This document shows, in pieces, positions 3,056 through 16,129 of a stretch of 32,661 nt of DNA. The notes beneath the pieces were generated by a model that worked only from the letters and a program-made list of their open reading frames with translations, was not told where the DNA came from and did no database searches. This DNA is from Methanothrix sp. (lineage in GTDB: Archaea > Halobacteriota > Methanosarcinia > Methanotrichales > Methanotrichaceae). Position 1 is the first letter of the stretch. Each line of letters opens with the position of its first letter. The stretch is from positions 1 to 32,661 of the forward strand of contig JAXGJB010000034.1 in assembly GCA_040770465.1 (NCBI GenBank), written 5' to 3'. The position numbers were made by a program, and so were the translations under genes.

Positions 3056-3164
3056 GTTCTATCTCCAGAACGCCCAGAGCTTCGCCATGGGATATACAGG
3101 TTATCCAAGTTGGTGTTACTGAACCTTGGGAAGTCCGGAGAAGATGAGATCGAATTTCGCGGGT

Positions 3165-6149
3165 ATGAAGTCGGGAGTAGCGGCTGAGAGATCCGTAGCA
3201 GAGGGGGTGGTGAGAAGGGCCGTCGGCATTCTGGCGATCCTGGCGATCCTTGTCCTTCTGGCCAATGCCATGGGGGCCAGGGGCCAGGTGCCGGAGGCTC
3301 TGGTCCGGGGCTCCTTCTCCGATGGGAACGGGAGCTGGAACGCCGAGACCTTCGGCTGGTTCTACTACGACCTGGACGAGGGGACCGGCGGCGAGAGGCT
3401 CACCATCGAGGCGGAAGATAGAGAGGTGAAAGAGGGTCACCTCGTCTATTCGAGCGAGGTCTGGACCGAGGAGTTCGACTTCGACGAGTGGGGCCGCTAT
3501 GAGGCTGTGGCCTTCCTGGGGAAGAGGTACCTTGCAGGCTACCCCGATAGCAACTTCACCGACGCCGTCTCCGCCCTGGAGGACGGCGAGCTCTGGGAGG
3601 TTCTCATCGACTCCGATGCCGCCCTGACCGCCACCACCGAGGAGCCGTTGTTCTTGCTTGCTGGATACTCGATCGAGGTGGGTGGAGTCTCTTCCGACGG
3701 AAATGAGGCCTATCTGATCCTGAAGAAATTCGGAATCGAGGTGGACCGGGCCGTGGTGAGGGCCGGCGACACCTACGTCTACGAGGCGGAAGGCGGCGAA
3801 GACGGAGATGACGACTTTCCCTTAATCCTGGTCCACGTCAGCGCGGCGATGGAGGGCTCAAATAGGGACATCGTCGACTTCAACGGGATCTTCCAGGTTC
3901 AGGACTTACCCACCTACAGGCTCGAGGCGGGCGACATCTTCGGCCTGATGGAGGTGGCGACGCTATCCGAGAGAAAGATCGAGCTTGAGAACGCTGAGGA
4001 TCTGGTCCTTCGGAGGGACAGCACCATCGTTCTTCTCGGCAATCTGATGCTGAGGGTGAGAGATACTTCATCGCTGGTCTATTATCCGCAGGGAGCCATC
4101 ACCGAGTACGGCGTCTACGAGATAAGGGGAACAGTGTACAGTGAGAACTCGAACGTTCCGATCAGCACGGCAACCGGAGAATTTGTCGGATATGCCCAGG
4201 CTCGATGGAACTATGAGAACTTCACTGGTTTTTATTTCGACGATGATAAAAAATTAGGTTTTGAGCCGCTAATAATTCACAGAACCGATGGCAGGTTTAT
4301 AAGAACAGCCCGTAGTGACGGTGGGAGATTAGTTGAGGGCGCAGAGTACGCGGGCTATGTCCAATACGTGGATTTTGAGTTTGATCCTTGGGGAAGCTAC
4401 CAGGCGTTGTGTTTCCTCGGACAACCATGGTTTGTTGGTTACGGACCGGGCGCCAAGTTGGATGTAGAAGAGAAGAGTATGCTGGAGCAGAACCAGATCG
4501 GCCTCGTTCTCATAGATACAGATCAGAGAGACAGAGCTGTGGCGGGAGAGGTCTATTTTCTGGGGGAGGGATATACCCTCTACATCCGCGACGTAGTAAA
4601 AGACGACGTCGAAAAAGATGAGATCTTCATCGAGTTGAGTAAGAACAATCAATTGGTGGACTCCGCTGTAGTCGAATCGAACTCCACATATATCTACAAG
4701 AGGGACGTGGGTGATGTCAAAGATCTGCCCATAATCGCTCTCCATGTAGAAAGCGTCTACAGTGACAGGGATGATCAGTTCGCCATAATTGATGGGCTAT
4801 TTCAGATATCAGACAGCCAGTATCTAACAATCGAGTATGGAGATGAACTTGGTGAATTGACAATCTATAATATCAATCCAGACTTAGGAGTTTTTTTGGC
4901 CAATTATGGGGAGATTTCCCTGAGGCGCGATTCCACAGTTGCCATCCTGCCGGGCATGAGCATAAAAGTAGCCGACAACGACACACTGAGATATTACATC
5001 TACGTGAACGAGTATGTTCTGCCCACTCCTGAAATAATCGATGTTTACCTCCCCGGAGAGCCAGTCCCGTCGGTCGGGAAGGCCAACTTCTCGGTCTTCG
5101 TTCTCGGAGGGAATATTGTCAGCATCACCGCAGAGACCGTCGACTCTCAGGGCAGAAGAATGGTACTTGGAGACCTGACGGCTTCAGGGGTAGGGAAAGA
5201 AAACCAGTGGCTTTATTCATGGCAGTGGAATGCCACTGTCCCGGCCCTCAGCGATGACAGGACCATCCTCCCTGTGTTGGATCTCCAGGGAGGTGTTCTA
5301 CAAGTCAACAACACCACGGAACCGGTCCAGGTGTTGGTGGGCTTCGATGGAGCCGGACGGATCGATCTCATCCAGGGCACTGCAGGTGAGATTTACTACA
5401 TATCCCCCGACGAATATGAAACGCTGGGGGCTTCCTTGAGTTACGTGGAGATGGCCTCCAATGAGACGCTGCGAAAAAGGTACATTAAGGTCGAGCCCGG
5501 AGTTAGCGAAATCGAGTTCTTCCAAATTGTTGATGGCACCGCCATCCTTGACAATACGAGCCATAAGCTCTGGTACTCCTCCCAGGGGATCGAGCCTCAC
5601 CTGATCAGTGTCGGAGCCCCACCGGGAAGGTACGAAATCAGGCTTCAAGTAGAAAACCCAACGGGTAGCGTTTCGAGGAACGGTCTTTACTTCTACGTCT
5701 CGGGGCCGGATCTGCGGTCTGTCGCCGTCGGGTCGGCGACGGTTGCCGTCGACGAGAGGTTCACCCTCCCCCTGAAGATCCCGGCGTCCGAGAACGAGAC
5801 GATGGTGACCCTCGTCTTCGATCCCGACCGCCTCAGCTTTGAGGGGATCGATAGCGTCGAGTGCGATATCGAGCAGGATCTTTCAGAAAAGGGAGAGATC
5901 GCCCTCGCCATCCCAGCAAACTGCACGGCAATCAACCTCACCTTCCTGGCCGATGGAGATGAGGGACCGTCCGATGTGGAGATCGTGGAGCTTGTGGGGA
6001 TCGAGGTCGACGAGGTCGTGAACGGGACCGTAAACGTCACCGTGACCCAGCGGTCGGAGGGTCGGGCCCCCGCCCCTGGGGCGGCATTCGCCCTGCTGGT
6101 GGTGGGGCTAGCCTTCTTCCTCGCGGGGCGGCGGAGGATGTGTGGCTGA
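3165..6149 (+). CDS. S-layer-domain (DUF1608-type duplication) cell-surface protein with C-terminal membrane anchor
   Basis: Signal peptide; two homologous modules (WNAETFGWFYYDLD / WNYENFTGFYFDDD; WGRYEAVAFLG / WGSYQALCFLG; GDTYVYE / NSTYIYK); C-terminal APAPG + hydrophobic helix + RRR. Start uncertain (3126-3208). Confidence 0.8.
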   Translation: MKSGVAAERSVAEGVVRRAVGILAILAILVLLANAMGARGQVPEALVRGSFSDGNGSWNAETFGWFYYDLDEGTGGERLTIEAEDREVKEGHLVYSSEVWTEEFDFDEWGRYEAVAFLGKRYLAGYPDSNFTDAVSALEDGELWEVLIDSDAALTATTEEPLFLLAGYSIEVGGVSSDGNEAYLILKKFGIEVDRAVVRAGDTYVYEAEGGEDGDDDFPLILVHVSAAMEGSNRDIVDFNGIFQVQDLPTYRLEAGDIFGLMEVATLSERKIELENAEDLVLRRDSTIVLLGNLMLRVRDTSSLVYYPQGAITEYGVYEIRGTVYSENSNVPISTATGEFVGYAQARWNYENFTGFYFDDDKKLGFEPLIIHRTDGRFIRTARSDGGRLVEGAEYAGYVQYVDFEFDPWGSYQALCFLGQPWFVGYGPGAKLDVEEKSMLEQNQIGLVLIDTDQRDRAVAGEVYFLGEGYTLYIRDVVKDDVEKDEIFIELSKNNQLVDSAVVESNSTYIYKRDVGDVKDLPIIALHVESVYSDRDDQFAIIDGLFQISDSQYLTIEYGDELGELTIYNINPDLGVFLANYGEISLRRDSTVAILPGMSIKVADNDTLRYYIYVNEYVLPTPEIIDVYLPGEPVPSVGKANFSVFVLGGNIVSITAETVDSQGRRMVLGDLTASGVGKENQWLYSWQWNATVPALSDDRTILPVLDLQGGVLQVNNTTEPVQVLVGFDGAGRIDLIQGTAGEIYYISPDEYETLGASLSYVEMASNETLRKRYIKVEPGVSEIEFFQIVDGTAILDNTSHKLWYSSQGIEPHLISVGAPPGRYEIRLQVENPTGSVSRNGLYFYVSGPDLRSVAVGSATVAVDERFTLPLKIPASENETMVTLVFDPDRLSFEGIDSVECDIEQDLSEKGEIALAIPANCTAINLTFLADGDEGPSDVEIVELVGIEVDEVVNGTVNVTVTQRSEGRAPAPGAAFALLVVGLAFFLAGRRRMCG

Positions 6150-6378
6150 GCTTCTCCGCCAGAGATCCGCTCTTTTCGTCTCTGCCGCGAAGCCGTTGCC
6201 AACTCGTCTATCCTTTAGGTTGGGGATGAAGTGGACACTCGCCCGTTTTTCGTTCTCCTTTAAATCGATAACACATTAGTGACTGTTCATGGAATCTGGG
6301 CAACAAAGACTTGACTATTTCTGAATTCCGGAAAGCTGCGCGCTGTTTGATATTATCTGCATGGGGTGTATTCATAAT

Positions 6379-7794
6379 TCATTTTTTGCATTCATATTTG
6401 CATCTGCCATTTTTATCGAATTCGCACGCCACTTTTTTCATGTTTTCCATATGATATATCTTTATCTTATCTTCATTTAGCACATCTGGATCGATTATTA
6501 TGAATGAATTGGTACATGACTCCCCTGCTTCGTCCTTTACCCATGAACCACAATTATATACATCTAATTGAGATGCAGAATCTGTTATTCTCCCAGCTTT
6601 ATGGGTATGACCAAATATATAAGACTGAATTTTATCGCCACAATTCCCTTGGTCTACCATCAAGTTCAGATATGTGTAGCCTTTCATCTCAATGCAGACA
6701 TCGTTTGCAACGATTTCAGGCAGAACATTATCAACGGTCTTATTGCGCATGCTGCTAATTGTACCGGTGAGGATTCCTGGGAGGATTATGCTTATCATCT
6801 TGGGCAATAGAAGAGCTACAATCCCAGAAAATAAGGCGAATAGACCTACAGGGCTTAGACTATCGGCCGGATTTAAATCACCCAAATTATTATCTGGTAG
6901 TATTAAATACAATCCTGCCTGAGCAAGGAATACTATTATAGCGATAATTGCATGCCATCTTTTATTGTATGTCCTCCAAATAAAATCTCTCGCCGTTCTT
7001 ACTACGTCATCAAGCTTAGAATAATACAATAAAGAATATACTGAAGAAAGGTTCGCTTCGAGATCCTGATAAATCTCCTCTGAGGATATACATTTTGATA
7101 ATAATCTCTCATGTATCTTCGATTTTGATAAAAACTTTGAGAGAAGTTTGATAATTCGAGCTAGTAATTTCTTTGATTGGCGTTGTTCTTTTGTGTTGTA
7201 ATGGCCGTGATCAAAGTACACCATGCCTATATTTTCAAATTTCTTTTTATAATGTGGGTAGAAAAATTTTACATCATCCAGTCCGATGTCGATATCTATC
7301 TCTTCAGTCATTATATAAGATTTATTGTCCTCTCCACATTTTTGTTTGTCGCCGTCACCTTCTTCATTCTGGATGCCCTCGTCCTCATTTTCATCGCTAT
7401 TCTTTCCTTCAATAATCTTATTATATCGCTCCTTTGTATTTATTGCCCAGCGGATCTCTTGCAAGAAATGATCGTGGTTTCCTAATACATATATAAGTTC
7501 TGCACCTTCATCTTGATGTTCTCTTACATAATTTGTCAATCTTTCAAAGAATTTTATATCATCTGCGTTATCCCAGGCGTATTTGAATTCCACTCTCCAC
7601 AAATCAAAAATATCACCTAGCAAGATGATTGTCTTTGGCTTGATTTCATCTTTAATCAGGTCCAATAGATTGATCAAATCCGCTAAATTCGTCTCTTCTT
7701 TTTCTGTAGGATCATGGACGACTCCAAAATGGGTATCTGATAAAACCACAGCTCGATTTGTACAGGTTCCGTCGCCCATCTTCCATCTCACCAA
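6379..7794 (-). CDS. Calcineurin-like metallophosphoesterase (LpxH-like motif set) with two internal transmembrane helices
   Basis: Motifs SDTHFG, LGDIFD, GNHD, DHGH, FGHTH, NCGSW; hydrophobic segments WHAIIAIIVFLAQAGLYLIL and VGLFALFSGIVALLLPKMISIILPGIL. Very AT-rich (15/60 GC at 7081-7140). Confidence 0.85.
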   Translation of the reverse strand: MVRWKMGDGTCTNRAVVLSDTHFGVVHDPTEKEETNLADLINLLDLIKDEIKPKTIILLGDIFDLWRVEFKYAWDNADDIKFFERLTNYVREHQDEGAELIYVLGNHDHFLQEIRWAINTKERYNKIIEGKNSDENEDEGIQNEEGDGDKQKCGEDNKSYIMTEEIDIDIGLDDVKFFYPHYKKKFENIGMVYFDHGHYNTKEQRQSKKLLARIIKLLSKFLSKSKIHERLLSKCISSEEIYQDLEANLSSVYSLLYYSKLDDVVRTARDFIWRTYNKRWHAIIAIIVFLAQAGLYLILPDNNLGDLNPADSLSPVGLFALFSGIVALLLPKMISIILPGILTGTISSMRNKTVDNVLPEIVANDVCIEMKGYTYLNLMVDQGNCGDKIQSYIFGHTHKAGRITDSASQLDVYNCGSWVKDEAGESCTNSFIIIDPDVLNEDKIKIYHMENMKKVACEFDKNGRCKYECKK

Positions 7795-8037
7795 TATATA
7801 GTAGTTTTTTTTACTAATTAAACTTTTCGTCTCATAGAATTTTCATCATTATGTTTAGATGGAATAGATTCCAACAAACGGATTACTGCAGGATATTTTC
7901 GGGAGAAAAACACTATAGAACTAGCTGAAGCAATCGTGGTTAGAAATCCCAAATTCAAAGTCTTCCCTCTCAATAAAAATAAGCTATATGGATGAAGAGA
8001 ACCGGGAGACAACCCGCCAAAAGACGGGATCTGCCCC

Positions 8038-8082
8038 TCAGATCCTCAGACCCCTGCCCAGCCCCGCCGGTCGGGCGAGGTT
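8038..8082 (-). repeat. Diverged copy of the last 15 codons of the radical SAM gene (att-like direct repeat)
   Basis: 37/45 nt identical, ungapped, to 13788-13832; encodes NLARPAGLGRGLRI* versus NLARAAGLDRGLGI*. Confidence 0.85.
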
Positions 8083-8156
8083 ACGGAAATACCGGATTGA
8101 GGTTGAGCAGGAGGGTCGAACCGGAAGATGGAACCGGCTGAACTCTCGATTAACAT

Positions 8157-11100
8157 TCACTCCAGGGGCCACTCGCCGACGGCCGAGTCGACCTCCTCCA
8201 TCAGCCGGATCGTCTCTTTGAGGGCGACGATCATCTTCTGGTAGGCGGTGAGGTCGTCGTAGGAGAGCTGCCTTCCCCGCCGATCTTTCAGCCACTTGTC
8301 GCAGACCTGATAGCCGCCGACCTGAAACTCCCAGACCTCGGGAGGTACGCCCTCGAAGTGCTGGCTTTTGTTGATGTAGACCCGCCCGGCCTCAAGAACC
8401 GCGCCGTCGCCAGCTTTCGATCCCGGCTCGACCTCCCCCGGCGCGAAATACTTTGGATACCCCTTCTCCACCCGATTGTCTCCGACGACGGGATAGCGGG
8501 TGATGGTCTTTGCCAGGAGCGGCGATTCGAGGAGGTGGAGCCCCACCAGCTCGCCGCCGAGCTTCACCAGCTTTCGGAACTTCTCACGATCCGACGTCAG
8601 AGGCACCCTTGGGAAGTCGATCTTCAGAAACTCGGCGTACCTCTCCCGATAGCTCGGCGAGTGGAAGACGGCGTAGATGTAGTCGAAGACGTCCTCCGGC
8701 CCGAAGGTCGCCTCCAGGTCTCCCCTTCCGTCGGGGACGAATTCGAGGCCGAGCTTTTCGGCGAAGTCGGCGACGAACTCGGGGCTGAGGTTCGGGACGC
8801 GACCATCTTTTCCCGGTGTCCAGTCGGTGCTGGTGAGGGATTTTTGGCGGGAGGAATTTTCGGCGGGGGTGGGGTAGAGGTAGAGTGGACGAAGCGTATC
8901 TATCGTCTTTAAGGATACTGCCACATGGTCTATAATTTCTCTGGACGCGATGACATGTTGCCAAGGTTGTTTAGTCTCAACTCTCCGTGGCAAAATAAGC
9001 CCTAAGTTCTCACCTACCAACATGTGGCGCATAACTCGCTGTTGTGGTTGCCCGATATATCCACGAGATTTGCCCGTGTAATATGTAAAACGCGTATCAA
9101 AAGGGCGATATAATATTGGTACAATATTATATCGATCAGGCCCACTCGTCTGAAGATCTTCTTGTGCACGATGTACTTTCCAGTCTCTTGCGTCTTGTCT
9201 CAAATCATATTTCCTTCTCGCGTCTTCTGTAGGAAGTGATGCAAAATCTTGTACAGTTCTCCAAACATCTTCTTGCGACCATCTTACGGTCAAACTATCT
9301 CTAGCAGTTACAATACCCACAGATTTTTCTAGGAATATATCGATGATCTTGGGTATATTTTGATATTCATCATCCAAACTGCCGTCTCGTGGTGTGAAAA
9401 AATAGAAGGGAGTTTGAGGGGTCGCCAGTTTCCATGTTGTGCTATCGATATCAATGTTAAATAGAGTTTCGTATTTCTTATCTCTTGTACCCCATAGCTC
9501 TGCATGATAAACTTTAGCTAGACCAGATTTTTCTAATTGTTTAACAAAAATTCCGATAGCTACGCCCTGCTGAATGTCGAAAACATTCTCATCTTTAGAG
9601 CCATCGGGAGCGCGCTCTTTCTTCTTTGCGTTCCCATGAAGATCCAAGATATAAATCTCGCTGAAAGCTTCCATCAACTGTTGGCGCATACCTCTAAAGG
9701 TTGGATTATCCAAGTAGCCGTGATTCGTAATGAATCCGATTACACCGGCGCCCGTCTCCTGAATACGCCATTGTGCCCAGCGAACGAACTTAACATAGTC
9801 ATCATGTAGCCATTTTTGCTGAATTTCTTGCAGACGTTTGCCATCCGCCATCTGATAGCTTGAGATAAGTTCTCTGACCCATTTTCCTTTATTTGCCGAA
9901 TGACCGGAGTAAGGCGGATTTCCCAGCACCACCATAATCGGCTTGTCTCGCTTCACAACCGAGGCCGACTGGGCTTCTTGGCCGATCGCCTCGTACCCCC
10001 AGAGGTTCTTCCAGGGGTTCTCGGCCTCTTCGAGGGTGTTGGTGAGGTAGACCCCGAGCCTCTCGTCGCTTTTGAAGTCGTAGACCCAAGTATCTCTCTC
10101 GGCCTCGGGGAGGTCCTGGCCCGCCAGCTCCATCCCCAGCTTGAAGTGGGCGACGGCGTAAGGCGCCATCAGAAGCTCAAAGCCGAAGATCCTGGGGAGG
10201 AGGTGGTCTCTCACGTAGGCCGACCAGAACCCGGCGTTCCCGTGTTCCATGAAATCCCGCCGGATGTGGTCGATGACCGCGTAGAGGAAGGTCCCGGTCC
10301 CGCAGGCGGGGTCGAGGATCAGGACTTTGGGGCTCGTCTTCTTCTTCCTCTCGGGAAGCTTTGATGGGTCCGGTCTCCCGTAACGGTCCAGAACCGGCGC
10401 CTCCTCCTCGTACTCGACGACCGAGGAGTCCATAAGCCCTCCGCCGAGGCCGAAGTGAGTCTTGAGGATCGAGTCGACGGACCGGACGATGTAAGAGACG
10501 ACAGGCTCGGGGGTGTAATAGACGCCCCGCCTCTCCCGGAGGGCGGGGTCGTAGGCGGCGAGGAAGGTCTCGTAGAAGTGGACGACGGGATCCTCCTGCT
10601 TCGTCCTCTTCCCGAAGTCTGCGAGGACTGAGTCGAGGTCGGTGTGGTCGAGGATACCGACGACGTCGTCGACGTAGCCGACGTAAGGCTCGTCGTCGAG
10701 GGCGGTCCCGGTGATCGTCTCGAAGAGCTGGCGGAGGAAGGGGTTCGTCCTCGGGATCTCCCGCGCCGCCCCGAGGCGGCGGAAGGGCTCGGGGCCGGCG
10801 TGGTTACACCTGGCGGCGAAGAGGCCGTAGACGATCGTCTGAGAGTACATGTCCGCGAACTCGGCGGTCTTCTCCGGCAGGTCCAGGTCGGGGATCAGAA
10901 CCTCGGCGAAGGCCCGCCGGAGGTTGCCGAGGTGGTCTGAGGCCAGCTCCTCCTCGAAGGCCCTGACCACAGCGTCCCGGATCAGGTGGGCGAGCCTCGC
11001 CAGCCGCTCGGATAATTCCCGCGAGGAGGTGATGGGGGCAGGGGTCTGGTCGAGGAAATTCTCGAATAGCCGGGCGAGATCCGCCTCGCCCTTCTTCTCC

Positions 11101-11486
11101 GAGACGATCTTGCCGTCCCTCGTGAGCCGCGCCAGGCGGGCGCTCTCCCGAAGCTCGCCCCGGCGGTACCAGCGAAACTCCAGGTAGTCGGTGAGGACCA
11201 GGTTCTCCAGGGATCGCAGGTAGCGATCCAGCTGCTCGGACCTCTCGGCCTCGTCCAGGGACTTTCCGACATCCTTCGCCTCGATGTACCCGACCGATAG
11301 GTCGCTCCGCTTGACGACGTAGTCGGGGGCTCCGCAGTCGACGTGCTTCGGCTCGTTGATGGCGGTGATGTCGGGGGCGAAGGACTCCACCAGACCCTTC
11401 AGCGCCGCCCGGTGGGTATGCTCGGTCGCCTCTCCGGTCCCAAACTCCCGCTTGACCAGTGCCAGGTACGTCTTCAGGTCGCCCAT
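8157..11486 (-). CDS. Single-chain restriction-modification enzyme (Type IIG / Type ISP-like N6-adenine methyltransferase with N-terminal PD-(D/E)xK nuclease, no helicase)
   Basis: N-terminal APDY...YIEAKD; RGVYYTP; motif I LDPACGTGTF; motif IV GNPPY; C-terminal YRPFD, YIYAVFHSPSYRERY, IDFPRVP and GGYQVCDKWLKDR typical of the Type ISP C-terminal specificity region. Confidence 0.88.
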   Translation of the reverse strand: MGDLKTYLALVKREFGTGEATEHTHRAALKGLVESFAPDITAINEPKHVDCGAPDYVVKRSDLSVGYIEAKDVGKSLDEAERSEQLDRYLRSLENLVLTDYLEFRWYRRGELRESARLARLTRDGKIVSEKKGEADLARLFENFLDQTPAPITSSRELSERLARLAHLIRDAVVRAFEEELASDHLGNLRRAFAEVLIPDLDLPEKTAEFADMYSQTIVYGLFAARCNHAGPEPFRRLGAAREIPRTNPFLRQLFETITGTALDDEPYVGYVDDVVGILDHTDLDSVLADFGKRTKQEDPVVHFYETFLAAYDPALRERRGVYYTPEPVVSYIVRSVDSILKTHFGLGGGLMDSSVVEYEEEAPVLDRYGRPDPSKLPERKKKTSPKVLILDPACGTGTFLYAVIDHIRRDFMEHGNAGFWSAYVRDHLLPRIFGFELLMAPYAVAHFKLGMELAGQDLPEAERDTWVYDFKSDERLGVYLTNTLEEAENPWKNLWGYEAIGQEAQSASVVKRDKPIMVVLGNPPYSGHSANKGKWVRELISSYQMADGKRLQEIQQKWLHDDYVKFVRWAQWRIQETGAGVIGFITNHGYLDNPTFRGMRQQLMEAFSEIYILDLHGNAKKKERAPDGSKDENVFDIQQGVAIGIFVKQLEKSGLAKVYHAELWGTRDKKYETLFNIDIDSTTWKLATPQTPFYFFTPRDGSLDDEYQNIPKIIDIFLEKSVGIVTARDSLTVRWSQEDVWRTVQDFASLPTEDARRKYDLRQDARDWKVHRAQEDLQTSGPDRYNIVPILYRPFDTRFTYYTGKSRGYIGQPQQRVMRHMLVGENLGLILPRRVETKQPWQHVIASREIIDHVAVSLKTIDTLRPLYLYPTPAENSSRQKSLTSTDWTPGKDGRVPNLSPEFVADFAEKLGLEFVPDGRGDLEATFGPEDVFDYIYAVFHSPSYRERYAEFLKIDFPRVPLTSDREKFRKLVKLGGELVGLHLLESPLLAKTITRYPVVGDNRVEKGYPKYFAPGEVEPGSKAGDGAVLEAGRVYINKSQHFEGVPPEVWEFQVGGYQVCDKWLKDRRGRQLSYDDLTAYQKMIVALKETIRLMEEVDSAVGEWPLE

Positions 11487-11620
11487 GTATTCATCGCCGC
11501 CGGACTTCGCCCCAAATCAAAAATCATAAAATCCGACGAGATATAAGTGGCTTTGCTCGCCTCCCCGAATGCACCATTTCAGGATAATTATATACCTCTT
11601 AAGAGCCAAAGTTGGAGCTG

Positions 11621-11824
11621 ATGTAGAGCATAGAAGAGCTGATGGAAAAGCTCCCCCCAGACCTCCAACAGGAGGTGAGGGATTTCGCCCGGTTCCTGGT
11701 GGAGAAGAAGGCGAAGCCGAAACGGAGAAAGCTCCGTCTTATCTGGGCGGGGGCTCAGAGAGTTCCCGATCAGTATTCATCACTCGACATTCAAAAGAAA
11801 TCCCTCGAATGCTGGGGCGACTGA
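11621..11824 (+). pseudogene. DUF2281-like putative antitoxin, apparently degraded
   Basis: LPPDLQQEVRDFARFL...KLRLIWAGA...SLDIQKKSLECWGD resembles DUF2281 proteins. The ATG at 11621, after a GGAG motif, is followed at once by an in-frame TAG; a second ATG at 11642 would give 60 aa. Confidence 0.65.
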
Positions 11825-11867
11825 CCCAACCCATCCAGACCTCGCTTTTGACGATTTAGTCCTCTCT

Positions 11868-11901
11868 TCAATCCCCAGACCTCGATCCAGCCTCGACACC
11901 C
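11868..11901 (-). repeat. Second diverged copy of the radical SAM gene 3' end
   Basis: 29/35 aligned positions identical to 13788-13822 (1 gap, 5 mismatches); reads ...LDRGLG-AT-TGA on the minus strand. Confidence 0.7.
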
Positions 11902-12241
11902 CCAACCCGAGGCCGACGGGATCCATCCCAGACCTGGGGAGGGACGCCCTCGGAGGTCTGAGTTTCTGCTCAGGCTACATTTTAGCTTTATTGATGTATA
12001 TATCAATTGAATAAGTCATATATTTCAGCTTATAATATCATTAAACTAAAACATATTAATTTAAAAATATTATATATGGCAGATTTACAGAATGCCAAGG
12101 ATCAGTCGCAATATAAAAAATTTTTTTATTTATACTATAATTTATAGGTTATATTTAGGATTTTTAGATATTTTCCGCCCATAATCTATAAATATGAATA
12201 ATATCAAAATGGAAGTTTACCGTCAACGGAGGCGTAGGTTT

Positions 12242-13726
12242 ATGGCATTAATGGACCAGATATTTCAAGCGTTTGGACCCTTTGGTCCAAATCTCGTTGG
12301 AGCGGTCGTCGTTCTGATAGCGGGATGGCTCATCGCTCTGATCGTCTCCCGCATAGTCGGGAAGGCGCTCCAGAAGACCGGCCTGGATAAAAAGATAGCA
12401 GCTAAAGTTCTCGGAGATGAAAAGGCCCAGTCGATCGAACCGCACCGCTGGATCTCGAAGATAATCTACTATGTGCTCTTATTCTTCGTATTGATCGCCT
12501 TCTTCCAGATCCTGGGGCTGACACTGGTAGCCCAGCCGCTGAACCAGCTCTTGAACATCGTCTTCGCATACATACCCAAGCTCTTTGCTGCCCTGGTGCT
12601 GGCGATAGTGGCATGGGTCGTTGCTACGGTGCTGAAGAAGCTGGTCCTCCGGGTCCTCACGGCCGCAAAGGTCGACCAGAGCCTGGGCGCCAGAGCGGGC
12701 CTGGAGAAGGCGGAGATGCCCTTGAGCCAGACGGCGGCGGAGATCGTCTTCTTCCTGGTGCTCCTGCTGTTTTTGCCCCTGATCCTGAACGCTCTTGATC
12801 TGGCTGGACTTCTGGTGCCCCTGGAGCTCATGATCGGCAAGATCCTCGGGTATATACCCCACCTCTTTGCCGCCGCGATCATCCTCCTCATCGGATGGTT
12901 CATAGCCAGAATTATTCAAAAGATAGTTACAAGCCTCCTCCTCGCCGTGGGGACCGAGCGGCTCAGCGAAAGGATCGGCCTGTCCAGGGTCCTCGGCAAG
13001 GTGGGCCTATCAGGTCTGATCGGCCTGGTGGTGTACATCCTCATCCTCATCCCGGTCCTGATCGCCGCCCTCGATGCCCTGGCCATAGACGCCATCACCG
13101 TCCCCGTCTCCAACATGCTGAACCAGATTCTGGGGATACTGCCGGCCTTATTCGGGGCGGCTCTGGTCCTGGCCGTCGCATATGTCCTGGGGAGGGTGAT
13201 CGCCGAGCTGGTGGTCAAGCTCCTGGAGGGGATGGGATTCGACTCCATGCCCAAGTGGTTGGGGTGCTCCTGGGAGCCTGCTGAAGGGGCAAAGACGCCC
13301 TCGCAGATCGTGGGCTACTTCGTCCTGGCATCGATAATGCTCTTCGCCCTGATCGAGGCCTCCCAGATCCTCAAGTTCGCGCTCCTGGCCGAGATCATCT
13401 ACGAGTTCACCGTCTTCGCCGGCCACGTCATGATGGGGCTGATCATCTTCGCCATCGGGGTCTATCTCGCAAACCTCGCCTACAAGGCGGTGATTGGGAG
13501 CGGCATGACCTCGGCAAAGCTGGCCGCCAACGCCGCAAGATTGTCGATCCTGGTCTTCGCCGGCGCCATGGCCCTGAGGCAGATGGGGCTCGCCAACGAG
13601 ATCATCAACCTGGCCTTCGGCCTGTTGCTGGGAGCGATAGCTGTGGCCGTAGCCTTGGCCTTCGGCCTCGGCGGAAGGGAGATCGCCGCAGAAGAGATCA
13701 GGAAGTGGTTGGAGTCGATGAGGTAG
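12242..13726 (+). CDS. Conserved TM-helix repeat protein (CmpX / mechanosensitive-channel-associated family)
   Basis: Four repeats of P-x-L-x-x-A-x-x-x-L-x-x-G/A-W/Y (PNLVGAVVVLIAGW, PKLFAALVLAIVAW, PHLFAAAIILLIGW, PALFGAALVLAVAY); C-terminal ALAFGLGGRE. GGAGG precedes ATG 12242. Confidence 0.85.
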   Translation: MALMDQIFQAFGPFGPNLVGAVVVLIAGWLIALIVSRIVGKALQKTGLDKKIAAKVLGDEKAQSIEPHRWISKIIYYVLLFFVLIAFFQILGLTLVAQPLNQLLNIVFAYIPKLFAALVLAIVAWVVATVLKKLVLRVLTAAKVDQSLGARAGLEKAEMPLSQTAAEIVFFLVLLLFLPLILNALDLAGLLVPLELMIGKILGYIPHLFAAAIILLIGWFIARIIQKIVTSLLLAVGTERLSERIGLSRVLGKVGLSGLIGLVVYILILIPVLIAALDALAIDAITVPVSNMLNQILGILPALFGAALVLAVAYVLGRVIAELVVKLLEGMGFDSMPKWLGCSWEPAEGAKTPSQIVGYFVLASIMLFALIEASQILKFALLAEIIYEFTVFAGHVMMGLIIFAIGVYLANLAYKAVIGSGMTSAKLAANAARLSILVFAGAMALRQMGLANEIINLAFGLLLGAIAVAVALAFGLGGREIAAEEIRKWLESMR

Positions 13727-13740
13727 TCGGACTCCACCAA

Positions 13741-13770
13741 ATCATTTTCTTTTATTATTTATTTTGCCAT
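13741..13770 (+). terminator. T-rich putative archaeal terminator
   Basis: ATTTTCTTTTTATTATTTATTTTG directly after the stop at 13726, between convergent genes. Confidence 0.45.
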
Positions 13771-13787
13771 CATGAGGGTTTTTTATG

Positions 13788-14690
13788 TCAGATCCCCAGC
13801 CCTCGGTCCAGCCCCGCCGCCCGCGCGAGGTTGACAGCCTCGGCGTACTCCCGAAGGGTGATGGGCCTTGAGAGTTCCGGATAATTTCGGGCCTTGTAGC
13901 ATGGGCGGTACTGGGCCATGACGTTCAGGTACGTCTCCGGCGAGACCTCCTCAGCGAGGAACCGCATCACCTCAGCCGTCCCCGCCAGCCCCTCGGGGAG
14001 GACAAGGTGGCGGACGAGAAGCCCCCGGACGGCGACCCCTCCATCGTCGATCTCAAGAGGCCCCACCTGCCGGTGCATCTCTCGGATCGCAGCCTTCATC
14101 ACCCTCGTGTAGTCGGGGGCGTCCGAGTACTTCATCGCTGCATCGTCGCTCCCGTACTTGGCGTCGGGCATGTAGATATCGCAGATCCCGTCCAAGAGCC
14201 GGAGGGTCTCGACGGAGTCGTACCCGCCGGAGTTGTAGACCAGGGGGACTGAGAGGCCCATCTCCGCCGCCTCGACGAGAGCCTCCAGGATCTGGGGCGC
14301 GAAGTGGGTGGGGGTGACGAAGTTGATGTTGTGGCAGCCGGCGTCCTCCTGGAGGCTGATCATCATCTCGGCGAGCTTCGCGGGTCTGACCTCCTTTCCC
14401 TCGCCTAGCTGGCTGATCTCGTAGTTCTGGCAGAAGACGCAGGCGAGGTTACAGCCGGTCATGAAGATGGTCCCCGATCCGTGGGCGCCCACCAGGGGCG
14501 GCTCCTCGCCGAAGTGGGGGGTGAAGCTCGAAACCCGAGCGAGCCAGCCGCTCCGGCAGTATCCCTCCTCGCCAGCCAGTCTATTGACGCCGCAAGCTCG
14601 GGGGCATAAGTCGCAGCTTTCAAGCCTGTCGAGGGCGATCTCAGCCCTCTCCCGCAGCGTCTCCGGGGGCATCTGGTTGTAGCTCGCCAA
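13788..14690 (-). CDS. Radical SAM protein, PflX-like
   Basis: CNLACVFC (CxxxCxxC), N-terminal CDLCPRACGVNR, PHFGEEP, GCHNINFVTPTH, DIYMPDAKY, GLLVRHLVLP, MAQYRP. TTG start with a GAGGTGA SD motif. Confidence 0.9.
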   Translation of the reverse strand: MASYNQMPPETLRERAEIALDRLESCDLCPRACGVNRLAGEEGYCRSGWLARVSSFTPHFGEEPPLVGAHGSGTIFMTGCNLACVFCQNYEISQLGEGKEVRPAKLAEMMISLQEDAGCHNINFVTPTHFAPQILEALVEAAEMGLSVPLVYNSGGYDSVETLRLLDGICDIYMPDAKYGSDDAAMKYSDAPDYTRVMKAAIREMHRQVGPLEIDDGGVAVRGLLVRHLVLPEGLAGTAEVMRFLAEEVSPETYLNVMAQYRPCYKARNYPELSRPITLREYAEAVNLARAAGLDRGLGI

Positions 14691-14869
14691 GGGACATCAC
14701 CTCAAAAATGGGATCGTGAAACTACTTCATCTCTGATGGTAAATACTTTTGGCGGTGGCCCTTCGTCGGCTCCAAAGATCTCGACCCTGATGTTGAATCC
14801 GAGAGAGACAGGCACCGCCCTCCGACCGAAACCTAAGACGACTGAAAAGAGGGGAACAAGGTATAGGGA

Positions 14870-16129
14870 TCAGATCCCCATCCCCTCTTTCATCAGATAA
14901 AATATCTCGGTGTTGTCGATCCGTCCTCTGCTGAACTTCTCGGCTCCGGGGCCGCTGGCCATGAGGGGGACGTCGACGGCCGTATGAGTCGACATCCCCG
15001 TCGGCGTGAGGTTATATCCCTCTCCGGGAACGAAGGCGAGGCCGCTGGCGAAGACGGGATCTCCCGCGGAATAGTCGTCGAAATCCACGGACCCGAGGAC
15101 CAGCCCGCCCGCCTCATGGTCCGCGGTCACCACCACCAAGGTGTCGCCGGACCGGTCGGCGTAGTCGAGGGCCACCTTCACCGCCTCGTCGAAGGCCAGG
15201 GTCTCTGCGGTGGTGTTCTCGTAGGACCTTATGTGGCAGGCGTGGTCGATCGTCCCGCCCTCCACCATGAGGAAGAAGCCGTCGTCGTCCCGAGAGAGGA
15301 CCTCGATGGCCTTCTCGGTCATCTCCGAGAGGCTGGGCTGGGGATCTATCTCGTTTTTCCTCCTCTGCTCGAAATAGAGATGAGAGGTGCCGAATAGCCC
15401 CAGAAGCTTCTCCGTCTCTTCAGGATCGATCTCCATAAGCTCGGTCCGGTTGTAGACGAAGACGTACCCGAGATCCTGGGCCTCTCGCAGTAGGTTCTGG
15501 TCGTCGTCCCGAGAGCCCGCCCCTCCGAGGGGGTCGGTCTCGTTCATGCCGACGAAGTAGCTGAGGCCGCCGCCCAGGGCTACATCGGCGCCGCTGGCCA
15601 GAAGCTGCTCTGCGATGCGGTTCTCATTGTCCCTGTGGTTGACGTGAGCGTAGAACGATGCGGGGGTGGCGTGGGTTATCCTCATGTTGGTGACGATCCC
15701 CGTCGCCTTCCCGTCGGCCTCGGCCAGCTCCAGGATGGTGGTGAGGTTCTCGCCATCCTGCACCCCGAAGATGGCGGTTTCATCCTGGCCGATTATCCCG
15801 TTGTTCGTCTTGTGGCCGGTGGCAAGGACGGTCCCGGCGGCAGCAGAGTCGGTTACAAAGCTGTCGGCAGAGGTGGTGGAGGAGTATCCCGCATACTCCA
15901 TCCCGTCCATGTAAAGCTCCGCGTCCATGTAGTTGGAGAGGTTCTCGTCCGCCTTAGCCCACCGGGCAGCGGTCATCTGCGCGAATCCCATCCCATCTCC
16001 TATCAGAAGGATCACGCTTCTGGCCTCATCTGGCGCTGAACCGTTTTCGGTCTCCGAGGCGATCCCGTACAGAGAGAACGAAACTAAGAGAAGGATCAAG
16101 ACTCCGGCGACCTTATGCAGCCTATCCAT
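14870..16129 (-). CDS. phoA: Alkaline phosphatase (PhoA family), secreted
   Basis: Signal peptide; IGDGMG, DSAAAGT (catalytic Ser), THATPA, EGGTIDHACH, TADHE, HT. GAGGTG precedes ATG 16129. Confidence 0.92.
   Translation of the reverse strand: MDRLHKVAGVLILLLVSFSLYGIASETENGSAPDEARSVILLIGDGMGFAQMTAARWAKADENLSNYMDAELYMDGMEYAGYSSTTSADSFVTDSAAAGTVLATGHKTNNGIIGQDETAIFGVQDGENLTTILELAEADGKATGIVTNMRITHATPASFYAHVNHRDNENRIAEQLLASGADVALGGGLSYFVGMNETDPLGGAGSRDDDQNLLREAQDLGYVFVYNRTELMEIDPEETEKLLGLFGTSHLYFEQRRKNEIDPQPSLSEMTEKAIEVLSRDDDGFFLMVEGGTIDHACHIRSYENTTAETLAFDEAVKVALDYADRSGDTLVVVTADHEAGGLVLGSVDFDDYSAGDPVFASGLAFVPGEGYNLTPTGMSTHTAVDVPLMASGPGAEKFSRGRIDNTEIFYLMKEGMGI

Follow-up and report, generated by a model that had tools for sequence, protein, structure and literature searches.

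We examined a 32,661-nt stretch of Methanothrix sp. DNA (assembly GCA_040770465.1, contig JAXGJB010000034.1; hereafter the window), in which the 3′ end of a radical SAM gene recurs twice downstream of the intact gene and two blocks of other genes lie between the copies. The source assembly, G000, consists of 66 contigs (the window being contig C34) and 2,539,985 bases, with 57% GC, 94.85% completeness and 3.44% contamination, and the sequencing runs that contain this stretch come mainly from anaerobic digesters, sludge and sediments. The intact target gene (13788-14690, minus strand) encodes an activase-like radical SAM protein of 300 aa (Pfam Radical_SAM, 2.3e-12) that reached the cut-off of no NCBIfam family. 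All 41 of 41 related genomes have a homologue, 12 of 15 congeners have a full-length orthologue, and the gene end is intact in every allele. The functional 50-nt terminus of the gene, stop codon included, is here called copy A (13788-13837, minus strand). Beyond it, in the reading direction of the gene, come an inserted segment that we call block E1 (11920-13787), a decayed, displaced ancestral gene end with indels (copy B, 11868-11919, minus strand), a block with two further genes, and a second displaced gene end (copy C, 8038-8086, minus strand).

On the gene strand, E1 runs from copy A through an antisense channel gene, an AT-rich spacer, a 40-nt piece of a restriction-modification (RM) gene and six bases to copy B. 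The channel gene (12194-13726, plus strand) encodes an msc-like protein of 510 aa with four transmembrane (TM)-helix repeats (Pfam MS_channel_1st_1, 1.3e-55, in four stretches; NCBIfam msc NF033912, 337.6 bits against a cut-off of 100). The spacer upstream of it (11966-12193) has a GC content of ∼37%, and the RM piece (11926-11965, minus strand), which reads ...EGVPPQVWD, comes from the 3′ region of a Type IIG RM gene and is 83% identical to the window's own RM gene at 8329-8368. The second block holds a 60-aa DUF2281/VapB-like antitoxin gene (11642-11824, plus strand; Pfam DUF2281, 6e-13; NCBIfam TA_VapB matched under its cut-off) and a gene for a Type IIG RM enzyme of 1109 aa (8157-11486, minus strand; Pfam Type_ISP_C, 3.7e-93; PADLOC REase_MTase_IIG, 7e-294), and copy C lies 70 nt past the RM stop codon. 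An earlier reading of this DNA from its letters only (the sequence-only reading) had described the RM enzyme, the DUF2281 protein, the TM-helix repeat protein and a low-GC gene just past copy C correctly, and had missed the 40-nt RM fragment beside copy B. In the congener G007, the counterpart of this fragment measures 41 nt and shares 92.7% identity with the window's RM gene. The fragment connects both blocks historically.

Copies A (13788-13832) and C (8038-8082) are identical at 37 of 45 positions, ungapped and in the same orientation. When every 45-mer on both strands of the assembly was compared with copy A, one scored 45 (A itself) and one 37 (C), and the runners-up were one 45-mer at 30, four at 29 and seven at 28. 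A profile of 11 gene ends from the genus detected copy C over profile positions 1-45 with a genome-wide E-value of 6.5e-6. The repeat that the sequence-only reading had placed at C was thereby confirmed, and the motif is not scattered over the genome, since BLAST, the 45-mer scan and the profile search returned no further copies in G000. Copy B is weak on its own: it is identical to A at 26 of 31 ungapped positions (20 of 22 bases in the BLAST alignment), the match of 29/35 noted earlier needs one gap, and its genome-wide nhmmer E-value of 0.53 is not significant. What stands is its position. Window positions 11575-11895 align with the DUF2281 gene of relatives and onward into their true radical SAM gene end (at 84.6% in L031, and reaching base 14535 in L033, whose gene spans 14507-15406), and in the congeners the DUF2281 gene is followed by ∼44 nt and then by the stop codon of the real gene. 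By this alignment, copy B is real through its position and is orthologous to the true gene end of the relatives. In G007, which is collinear with window positions 9470-13790 at 86%, copy B (L058 2856-2901) is identical to A at 42 of 45 positions and is detected by the profile with an E-value of 2.9e-8.

All copies start at the stop codon. Copies B and C, with one indel each, match the gene through position 50 (...GACGG) and diverge after it, and the 3′ part of an RM gene precedes both of them in the reading direction of the gene. Translation gives NLARPAGLGRGLRI for copy C, GLARAAGLDRGVGI for copy B of G007 and NLARAAGLDRGLGI for the real gene end, each followed by the stop, so that copy B of G007 codes for 13 of the 14 residues of the real C-terminus. 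The structure recurs in contigs assembled from other runs, which span the junction of B with the RM fragment (X1, X5, X12), the junction of E1 with the gene (X5, X12) and copy C (X1, X12, X5), although the source sample itself may be among these runs. Among 16 genomes of the genus, extra copies were found only in G000 (B and C) and G007 (B). We also compared 80 metagenome loci out of 589 relatives found, 79 of them with a readable stop codon; a true second copy occurred solely in the metagenome contig L068, where copy C is identical to the contig's own gene end at 34 of 45 positions (nhmmer, profile positions 1-49), and an opposite-strand match at 29/45 in L139 was taken as chance. The view of the copies as displaced gene ends that bracket two cargo blocks was upheld by these results.

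Block E1 is present in G007, G004, L076 and L151, with the spacer conserved in G007 and L076, and its channel gene occurs in 3 of the 26 relatives searched (G000, G004 and G007). Homologues of the channel gene in other Methanotrichaceae are 71-75% identical, the match being confined to the coding part, and the flanks fetched hold neither a radical SAM nor an RM gene; the channel gene therefore came to this locus from elsewhere. L151 (1678 nt) carries a channel gene 94% identical to that of the window, along with the first part of the radical SAM gene end; its filing in a Bacteroidales bin is probably a binning error. L076 reads YdjM-like gene, 214-nt RM 3′ remnant, spacer, channel gene and radical SAM gene, without copy B and without DUF2281. 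Its RM remnant shares one boundary, to the base, with the 40-nt fragment and at the other end extends to the RM stop codon, and recombination between direct repeats, namely the 40-nt fragment and the full RM gene, would produce this allele from one of the G000 type. In G004, an internally deleted RM gene is followed by the first ∼90 nt of DUF2281, the channel gene and the radical SAM gene, and copy B is gone. We considered whether the RM gene of G004 was E1's own copy and dropped this idea: because a DUF2281 remnant is kept between it and the channel gene, it is the orthologue of the window's RM gene. Both alleles, L076 and G004, appear to have arisen by deletion.

Relatives vary widely in the genes that they carry between the radical SAM gene and its neighbours, as the sequence-only reading had led us to expect. 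The closest comparison is with L068, whose radical SAM protein is 92% identical to that of the window and whose DNA flanks are 94-97% identical. L068 reads phosphoesterase gene, copy C, RM gene, DUF2281 gene, ∼40 nt and a single gene end; E1 is missing, and its absence is bounded by the repeats. A contig from run X8 likewise links 11824 to 13788 through 40 other letters, and near-identical pieces of E1 occur in X8 too. Two other joints from this run, 11952 to 8370 and 13830 to 8082, were rejected as new structures and were read as the RM gene and copy C of other strains mapping to the more similar paralogous place. The claim that indel boundaries coincide with the repeats therefore stands for E1, through L068 and the X8 contig. 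It is unsupported for the RM and DUF2281 block: no empty site, that is, a gene end joined directly to the outer flank of copy C, was found in the 10 congener loci with downstream sequence or in the 8 closest of the 80 metagenome loci. The last 53 nt of the gene are 81% identical between G000 and L068 and the gene body 92.5%. As a sign of exchange limited to an attachment (att) site, this divergence is not decisive, because L076 and G012 show long mosaic tracts at the 3′ region of the gene with no sharp 50-nt edge, and the protein C-termini vary anyway.

The gene end may hold a 50-nt att-like site, and site-specific recombination there would account for this arrangement; we give this reading a probability of about 0.45, a little under even. 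Because copies B and C share the same 50-nt extent and are both preceded by RM 3′ sequence, they point to one recurrent junction rather than to two accidents. The three copies would be the scars of at least two recombination events at the 50-base terminus of the radical SAM gene; each would have put DNA between the gene and its former end, giving the gene a new end (A) and displacing the old one downstream. The inserted units may have been circular DNAs of one family, each with a 50-nt mimic of the gene end beside an RM gene, and the recombinase, presumably of the site-specific att type and not encoded here, would have been supplied from elsewhere or lost. The window lacks transfer RNA (tRNA) and transfer-messenger RNA (tmRNA) genes, so the site is not of the tRNA type. 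The older unit, RM plus DUF2281 and ending at C, would have entered first, and the younger E1, ending at B, would have been stacked in front of it and would later have been stripped of the greater part of its own RM gene. Deletions and homologous recombination would then have reshaped the locus: L076 would descend from the recombination between direct repeats described above, L068 from loss or allelic replacement of E1, and G004 from a deletion that runs from the middle of DUF2281 into the spacer.

Several observations weigh against such site-specific integration, and the largest group of them concerns the machinery. No Phage_integrase match was seen in the Pfam output for 103 open reading frames (ORFs), up to 12 kb downstream, at the 10 congener loci. 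Pfam likewise revealed no recombinase gene among the ORFs of the window, serine recombinases not having been searched for separately. PF00589 was matched in G000 only by fragments, and these lie elsewhere (C48 and C51, with a sub-threshold match in C24). A pattern of the site in International Union of Pure and Applied Chemistry (IUPAC) letters had no match in viral contigs as a trace of a free element, and these contigs held no relatives of the channel or RM protein. The whole island compared with plasmids returned only distant bacterial RM and channel genes. Among the joints listed there was no circular junction of E1; these joints come from contigs only, in which rare forms are not visible. 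In these searches, the mobilising recombinase and the circular junction that the sequence-only reading had envisaged, as well as a free element with the site, were not found. Displaced copies are also confined to three sources (G000, G007 and L068) among the 16 genus genomes and 80 metagenome loci.

The distribution of the RM gene points the same way. At 8 of the 10 congener loci it stands at the gene end, in full (G001, G003, G013), internally deleted (G004), as a 190-aa remnant (G008, G011, G012) or as a 61-aa remnant (G015). By tblastn, DUF2281 lies beside it in 7 of the 10; G004 keeps only the remnant described above and G015 has a YbjQ-like gene there. G002 and G010 carry no RM gene, with the YbjQ-like gene in its place and a different flank. 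No second gene-end copy was detected at the congener RM loci, either at 29/45 or better or by profile search, so either the scar was repeatedly lost or copy C has a different origin. On these counts, an RM gene at this gene end, whole or as a remnant, is the usual condition in the genus and the RM and DUF2281 block is not a lineage-specific cassette, in which respect the sequence-only reading needs correcting. The absence of E1 in L068 is also less telling than its clean edges suggest. L068 is 96.8% identical to the window at 6884-8888 and 94-97% from 13787 on, versus 88.7% at 9447-11502 and 81% at 11700-11849, with no alignment at 8889-9446; the missing E1 falls within this tract of ∼5 kb at 81-89%. 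From these identities, the divergent tract was probably one lineage's gift to another by homologous recombination, and an allele swap of this kind, the comparison suggests, accounts for the absence of E1 as well as excision does. The E1 difference lies inside this divergent tract; its clean boundaries show the ends of E1 and not its excision. The locus shows that displaced gene ends can vanish quickly: they were lost in G004 and L076 and are unseen at the eight congener loci with the RM block, and the absence of repeats elsewhere is therefore compatible with a history of such insertions.

Copy C is common to G000 and L068 only and sits where synteny with the relatives breaks. In G001, G003, G008, G011, G012 and L076, the RM gene is followed by ∼100 nt and then by a conserved YdjM-like gene, and homology to the window ends at the RM stop codon. 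Past copy C, the window continues with a low-GC metallophosphoesterase gene (6379-7794, minus strand; Pfam Metallophos, 4.3e-10), a multi-copy repeat of ∼140 nt truncated on its left side (6212-6351, plus strand) at the junction with the flank of the S-layer gene, and the S-layer protein gene itself (3126-6149, plus strand). Genes resembling cobyrinic acid diamide synthase and NifH, read from translations with no family-library search, occupy the left end of the window, and an alkaline phosphatase gene lies beyond the radical SAM gene on the right. The distance from the NifH-like gene to the radical SAM gene is 11 kb in the window versus 96 kb in G001, where it was measured on one contig, and synteny on the left side stops at 6141. 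Contig C48 of G000 carries the reciprocal junction, in which the genes that follow the S-layer gene in G001 are succeeded by a binding-protein gene and then by YdjM. Because left synteny ends here and C48 joins the S-layer-following genes to the YdjM side, copy C lies at a rearrangement breakpoint.

The two PF00589 fragments, C48:5581-5856 and C51:10876-11139, are tyrosine-recombinase remnants that consist of an 83-aa C-terminal catalytic piece. They adjoin an ORF resembling a periplasmic binding protein (read without a family search), and their place, after the S-layer gene in G001, is conserved. This remnant was rejected as an integrase at the synteny break: it lies ∼1 kb from the YdjM junction, with the binding-protein gene in between, and no sequence resembling the gene end is present there. 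Contigs C51 and C61 together form a second version of the C48 region that is 90-93% identical to it, and the bin thus appears to combine two related strains. No listed contig from other runs bridges the repeat gap at 6267-6305, and loose ends occur at 6212 and 6334 in all four runs compared. Since the repeat gap is unbridged and the bin holds two versions of C48, the adjacency of the S-layer gene could be a misjoin. At the edges of the insertions of other congeners (POR genes in G013, an SNF symporter gene in G004 and G015), no repeats above chance were detected.

Some further features of the island and its surroundings deserve mention. The ∼140-nt repeat occurs in several copies in G000 and in many in G014 and G004. 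All three full copies examined adjoin, on their right side, the 3′ end of a gene, namely the phosphoesterase gene in the window (6212-6351), a Schlafen/AlbA_2 gene in C18 (2507-2650) and a low-GC gene beside an N6_N4 DNA methylase in C11 (21998-22139); no Rfam family matches the window's copy, which lacks the left ∼30 nt common to the others. The repeat could mark the edge of a cassette, or be a small mobile element or an RNA gene. On the other side of the locus, between the alkaline phosphatase and radical SAM genes of G015, L032 carries at 4500-4873 a tandem array of 102-nt repeats within a gene absent from the window, and a similar repetitive stretch lies upstream of the radical SAM gene in G001. 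Rfam searches of 5900-14000 returned one sub-threshold long non-coding RNA match, which was taken as chance, and none for the E1 spacer. The metallophosphoesterase gene has a GC content of 34-40% and is present in 2 of 41 relatives (G000, and G023 at 52% identity); a PADLOC search with its product gave no match, and it was therefore dropped as a candidate for a known defence gene. Defence-like genes, for an OLD-like TOPRIM protein, nSTAND3 and DUF4357, are scattered in congeners through the variable region past YdjM, several kb beyond the RM gene (L031, L036 and L038), and the wider neighbourhood may be a defence island. Within the RM gene, the central part (8889-9446) has a GC content of 41-47% versus ∼60-68% elsewhere and aligns with no relative, not even with a contig that is 97% identical on one side; from its composition and lack of alignment, it looks like a swapped target-recognition domain. 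DUF2281 has no toxin partner in the window. In G001, a PIN-domain gene (138 aa; L037 17206-17622) follows it and occupies the gap up to the stop codon of the radical SAM gene, so that the antitoxin is an orphan in most genomes.

An arrangement of this kind might also arise with no recombinase at all. The RM and DUF2281 block could have entered by an RM-linked long target duplication that created A and C, after which an unequal crossover between A and C would have given a tandem block with B as the middle repeat; ∼240 nt next to B would then have been deleted, and DUF2281 and most of the RM gene replaced by the spacer and the channel gene. The fused R-M gene, a block of ∼3.8 kb (8087-11867; below 20 kb), a duplication of ∼50 nt (above 30 bp) and the lack of a mobility gene agree with the definition of this class in PMC2853133. 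The crossover would by construction give copy B its 50-nt extent and would flank it with DUF2281-side sequence and RM 3′ sequence, as observed, while homologous exchange is evident at this locus in the divergent tract and the mosaic gene ends and no integrase was found. The price is at least three further events (duplication, deletion and replacement), a duplication that ends at the stop codon by chance, and a tandem intermediate that was not seen. Moreover, an empty-site genome aligning to both repeats, which the class calls for, was not found, and PMC2853133 reports that its screen left no archaeal RM system. We regard this history as the main, if rather unlikely, rival.

Two independent joins, illegitimate or facilitated by homology, are improbable. 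Here donor DNA from the radical SAM locus of another strain would have been anchored by homology to the gene body, a non-homologous join would have linked its far end to a point inside the recipient's gene end, and each event would have left a displaced end. Such events would be in keeping with the occurrence of E1 in distinct lineages at one locus (G000, G004, G007, L076, L151), with the mosaic 3′ region of the gene between lineages and with the existence of an L076-type donor (gene, channel gene, spacer, RM remnant). Yet B and C would then owe their common limit at position 50 to two non-homologous joins that happened to hit one base, both of them involving RM 3′ sequence; moreover, L076 derives more simply from the G000 type through the 40-nt direct repeats. 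The idea that the repeats reflect chance similarity or an assembly artefact of the metagenome bin is barely credible. The bin does comprise 66 contigs with 3.44% contamination, and it holds two versions of another region at 90-93% (C48 versus C51 and C61). Between the S-layer and phosphoesterase genes, the assembly also passes through a multi-copy repeat, with the gap at 6267-6305 unbridged among the contigs listed. Against this, copy C has no near-equal in the genome, and contigs from separate runs and studies, together with L068, L058 and L076, contain B, C, the RM fragment and both E1 junctions; for the repeats an artefact is largely refuted, and it is left for the S-layer adjacency only.

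Methanothrix-type archaea are major acetate-consuming methanogens. To our knowledge, few mobile elements have been reported for them and no genetic tools exist. A 50-nt site where DNA has repeatedly entered and left with the adjacent gene unharmed would offer a marker of strain variation in digesters and a candidate landing site for engineering, and it would also be an archaeal example for how RM genes move without mobility genes. More speculatively, and with small odds in our estimation, the blocks could represent a family of small cassettes of Methanothrix-type methanogens that lack an integrase, each a Type IIG RM gene with a 50-nt gene-end mimic that homes to the radical SAM end and takes up extra cargo such as a toxin-antitoxin pair or a channel gene, moved by a recombinase acting in trans or by host recombination on the 50-nt repeat. 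If this were true, it would be a selfish R-M unit with its own landing pad in archaea.

Among known systems, the locus resembles archaeal elements integrated at att sites in gene 3′ ends, as treated in PMC6563490. There, crenarchaeal att sites measure 29-69 bp, 14 of 68 thaumarchaeal elements with definable sites use protein-coding genes, and arrays of tyrosine-recombinase elements form by re-use of one att site. In both cases the repeats copy the 3′ end of the target, which is restored and may be protein-coding, and the newest insert lies nearest the gene; our 50 nt fall within the reported range. Unlike those elements, the blocks described here have no integrase or excisionase in or beside them, no free form was found and each holds one or two genes. 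The tycheposon islands of Prochlorococcus (bioRxiv 10.1101/2020.12.28.424599) are similar in that successive integrations at one site push older elements inward and leave degenerate remnants and partial target copies with adaptive or defensive cargo; 910 of 937 tycheposons carry a tyrosine recombinase and most target tRNA genes, whereas our locus has no integrase and a protein-coding target, so that the likeness is one of analogy only. Casposons, as cited in PMC6563490, can likewise stack up behind one another at the 3′ end of a protein-coding gene, in methanogens as well as in other archaea. They differ from the present blocks, where we obtained no Cas1 match in the four long ORFs (RM, DUF2281, msc-like and metallophosphoesterase), no pair of terminal inverted repeats at the block ends in an inverted-repeat scan, and a duplication of 50 nt. 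Target duplications of casposons are much shorter than 50 nt.

The class of RM-linked long target duplications was described for bacterial RM genes lying between direct target repeats of more than 30 bp without mobility genes (Furuta, Abe and Kobayashi 2010, PMC2853133). Its members share with our locus an R-M unit between such repeats, and allelic variation of Type IIG recognition domains, which window positions 8889-9446 may also show, is reported in that paper as well; its duplications are long and variable and its cases have an empty-site genome, whereas here two copies share one boundary and no such genome was found. A radical SAM target in Methanotrichaceae was not met in the literature searched, supplementary tables being outside its scope, which is no proof that it is unpublished. 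All in all, the locus is a decayed relic. A variable island at a gene 3′ end with leftover target copies is known already; what is new is this target in this host group, the lack of a recombinase and the RM fragment that links the blocks, and the locus is possibly the first archaeal case to resemble an RM-linked long target duplication.

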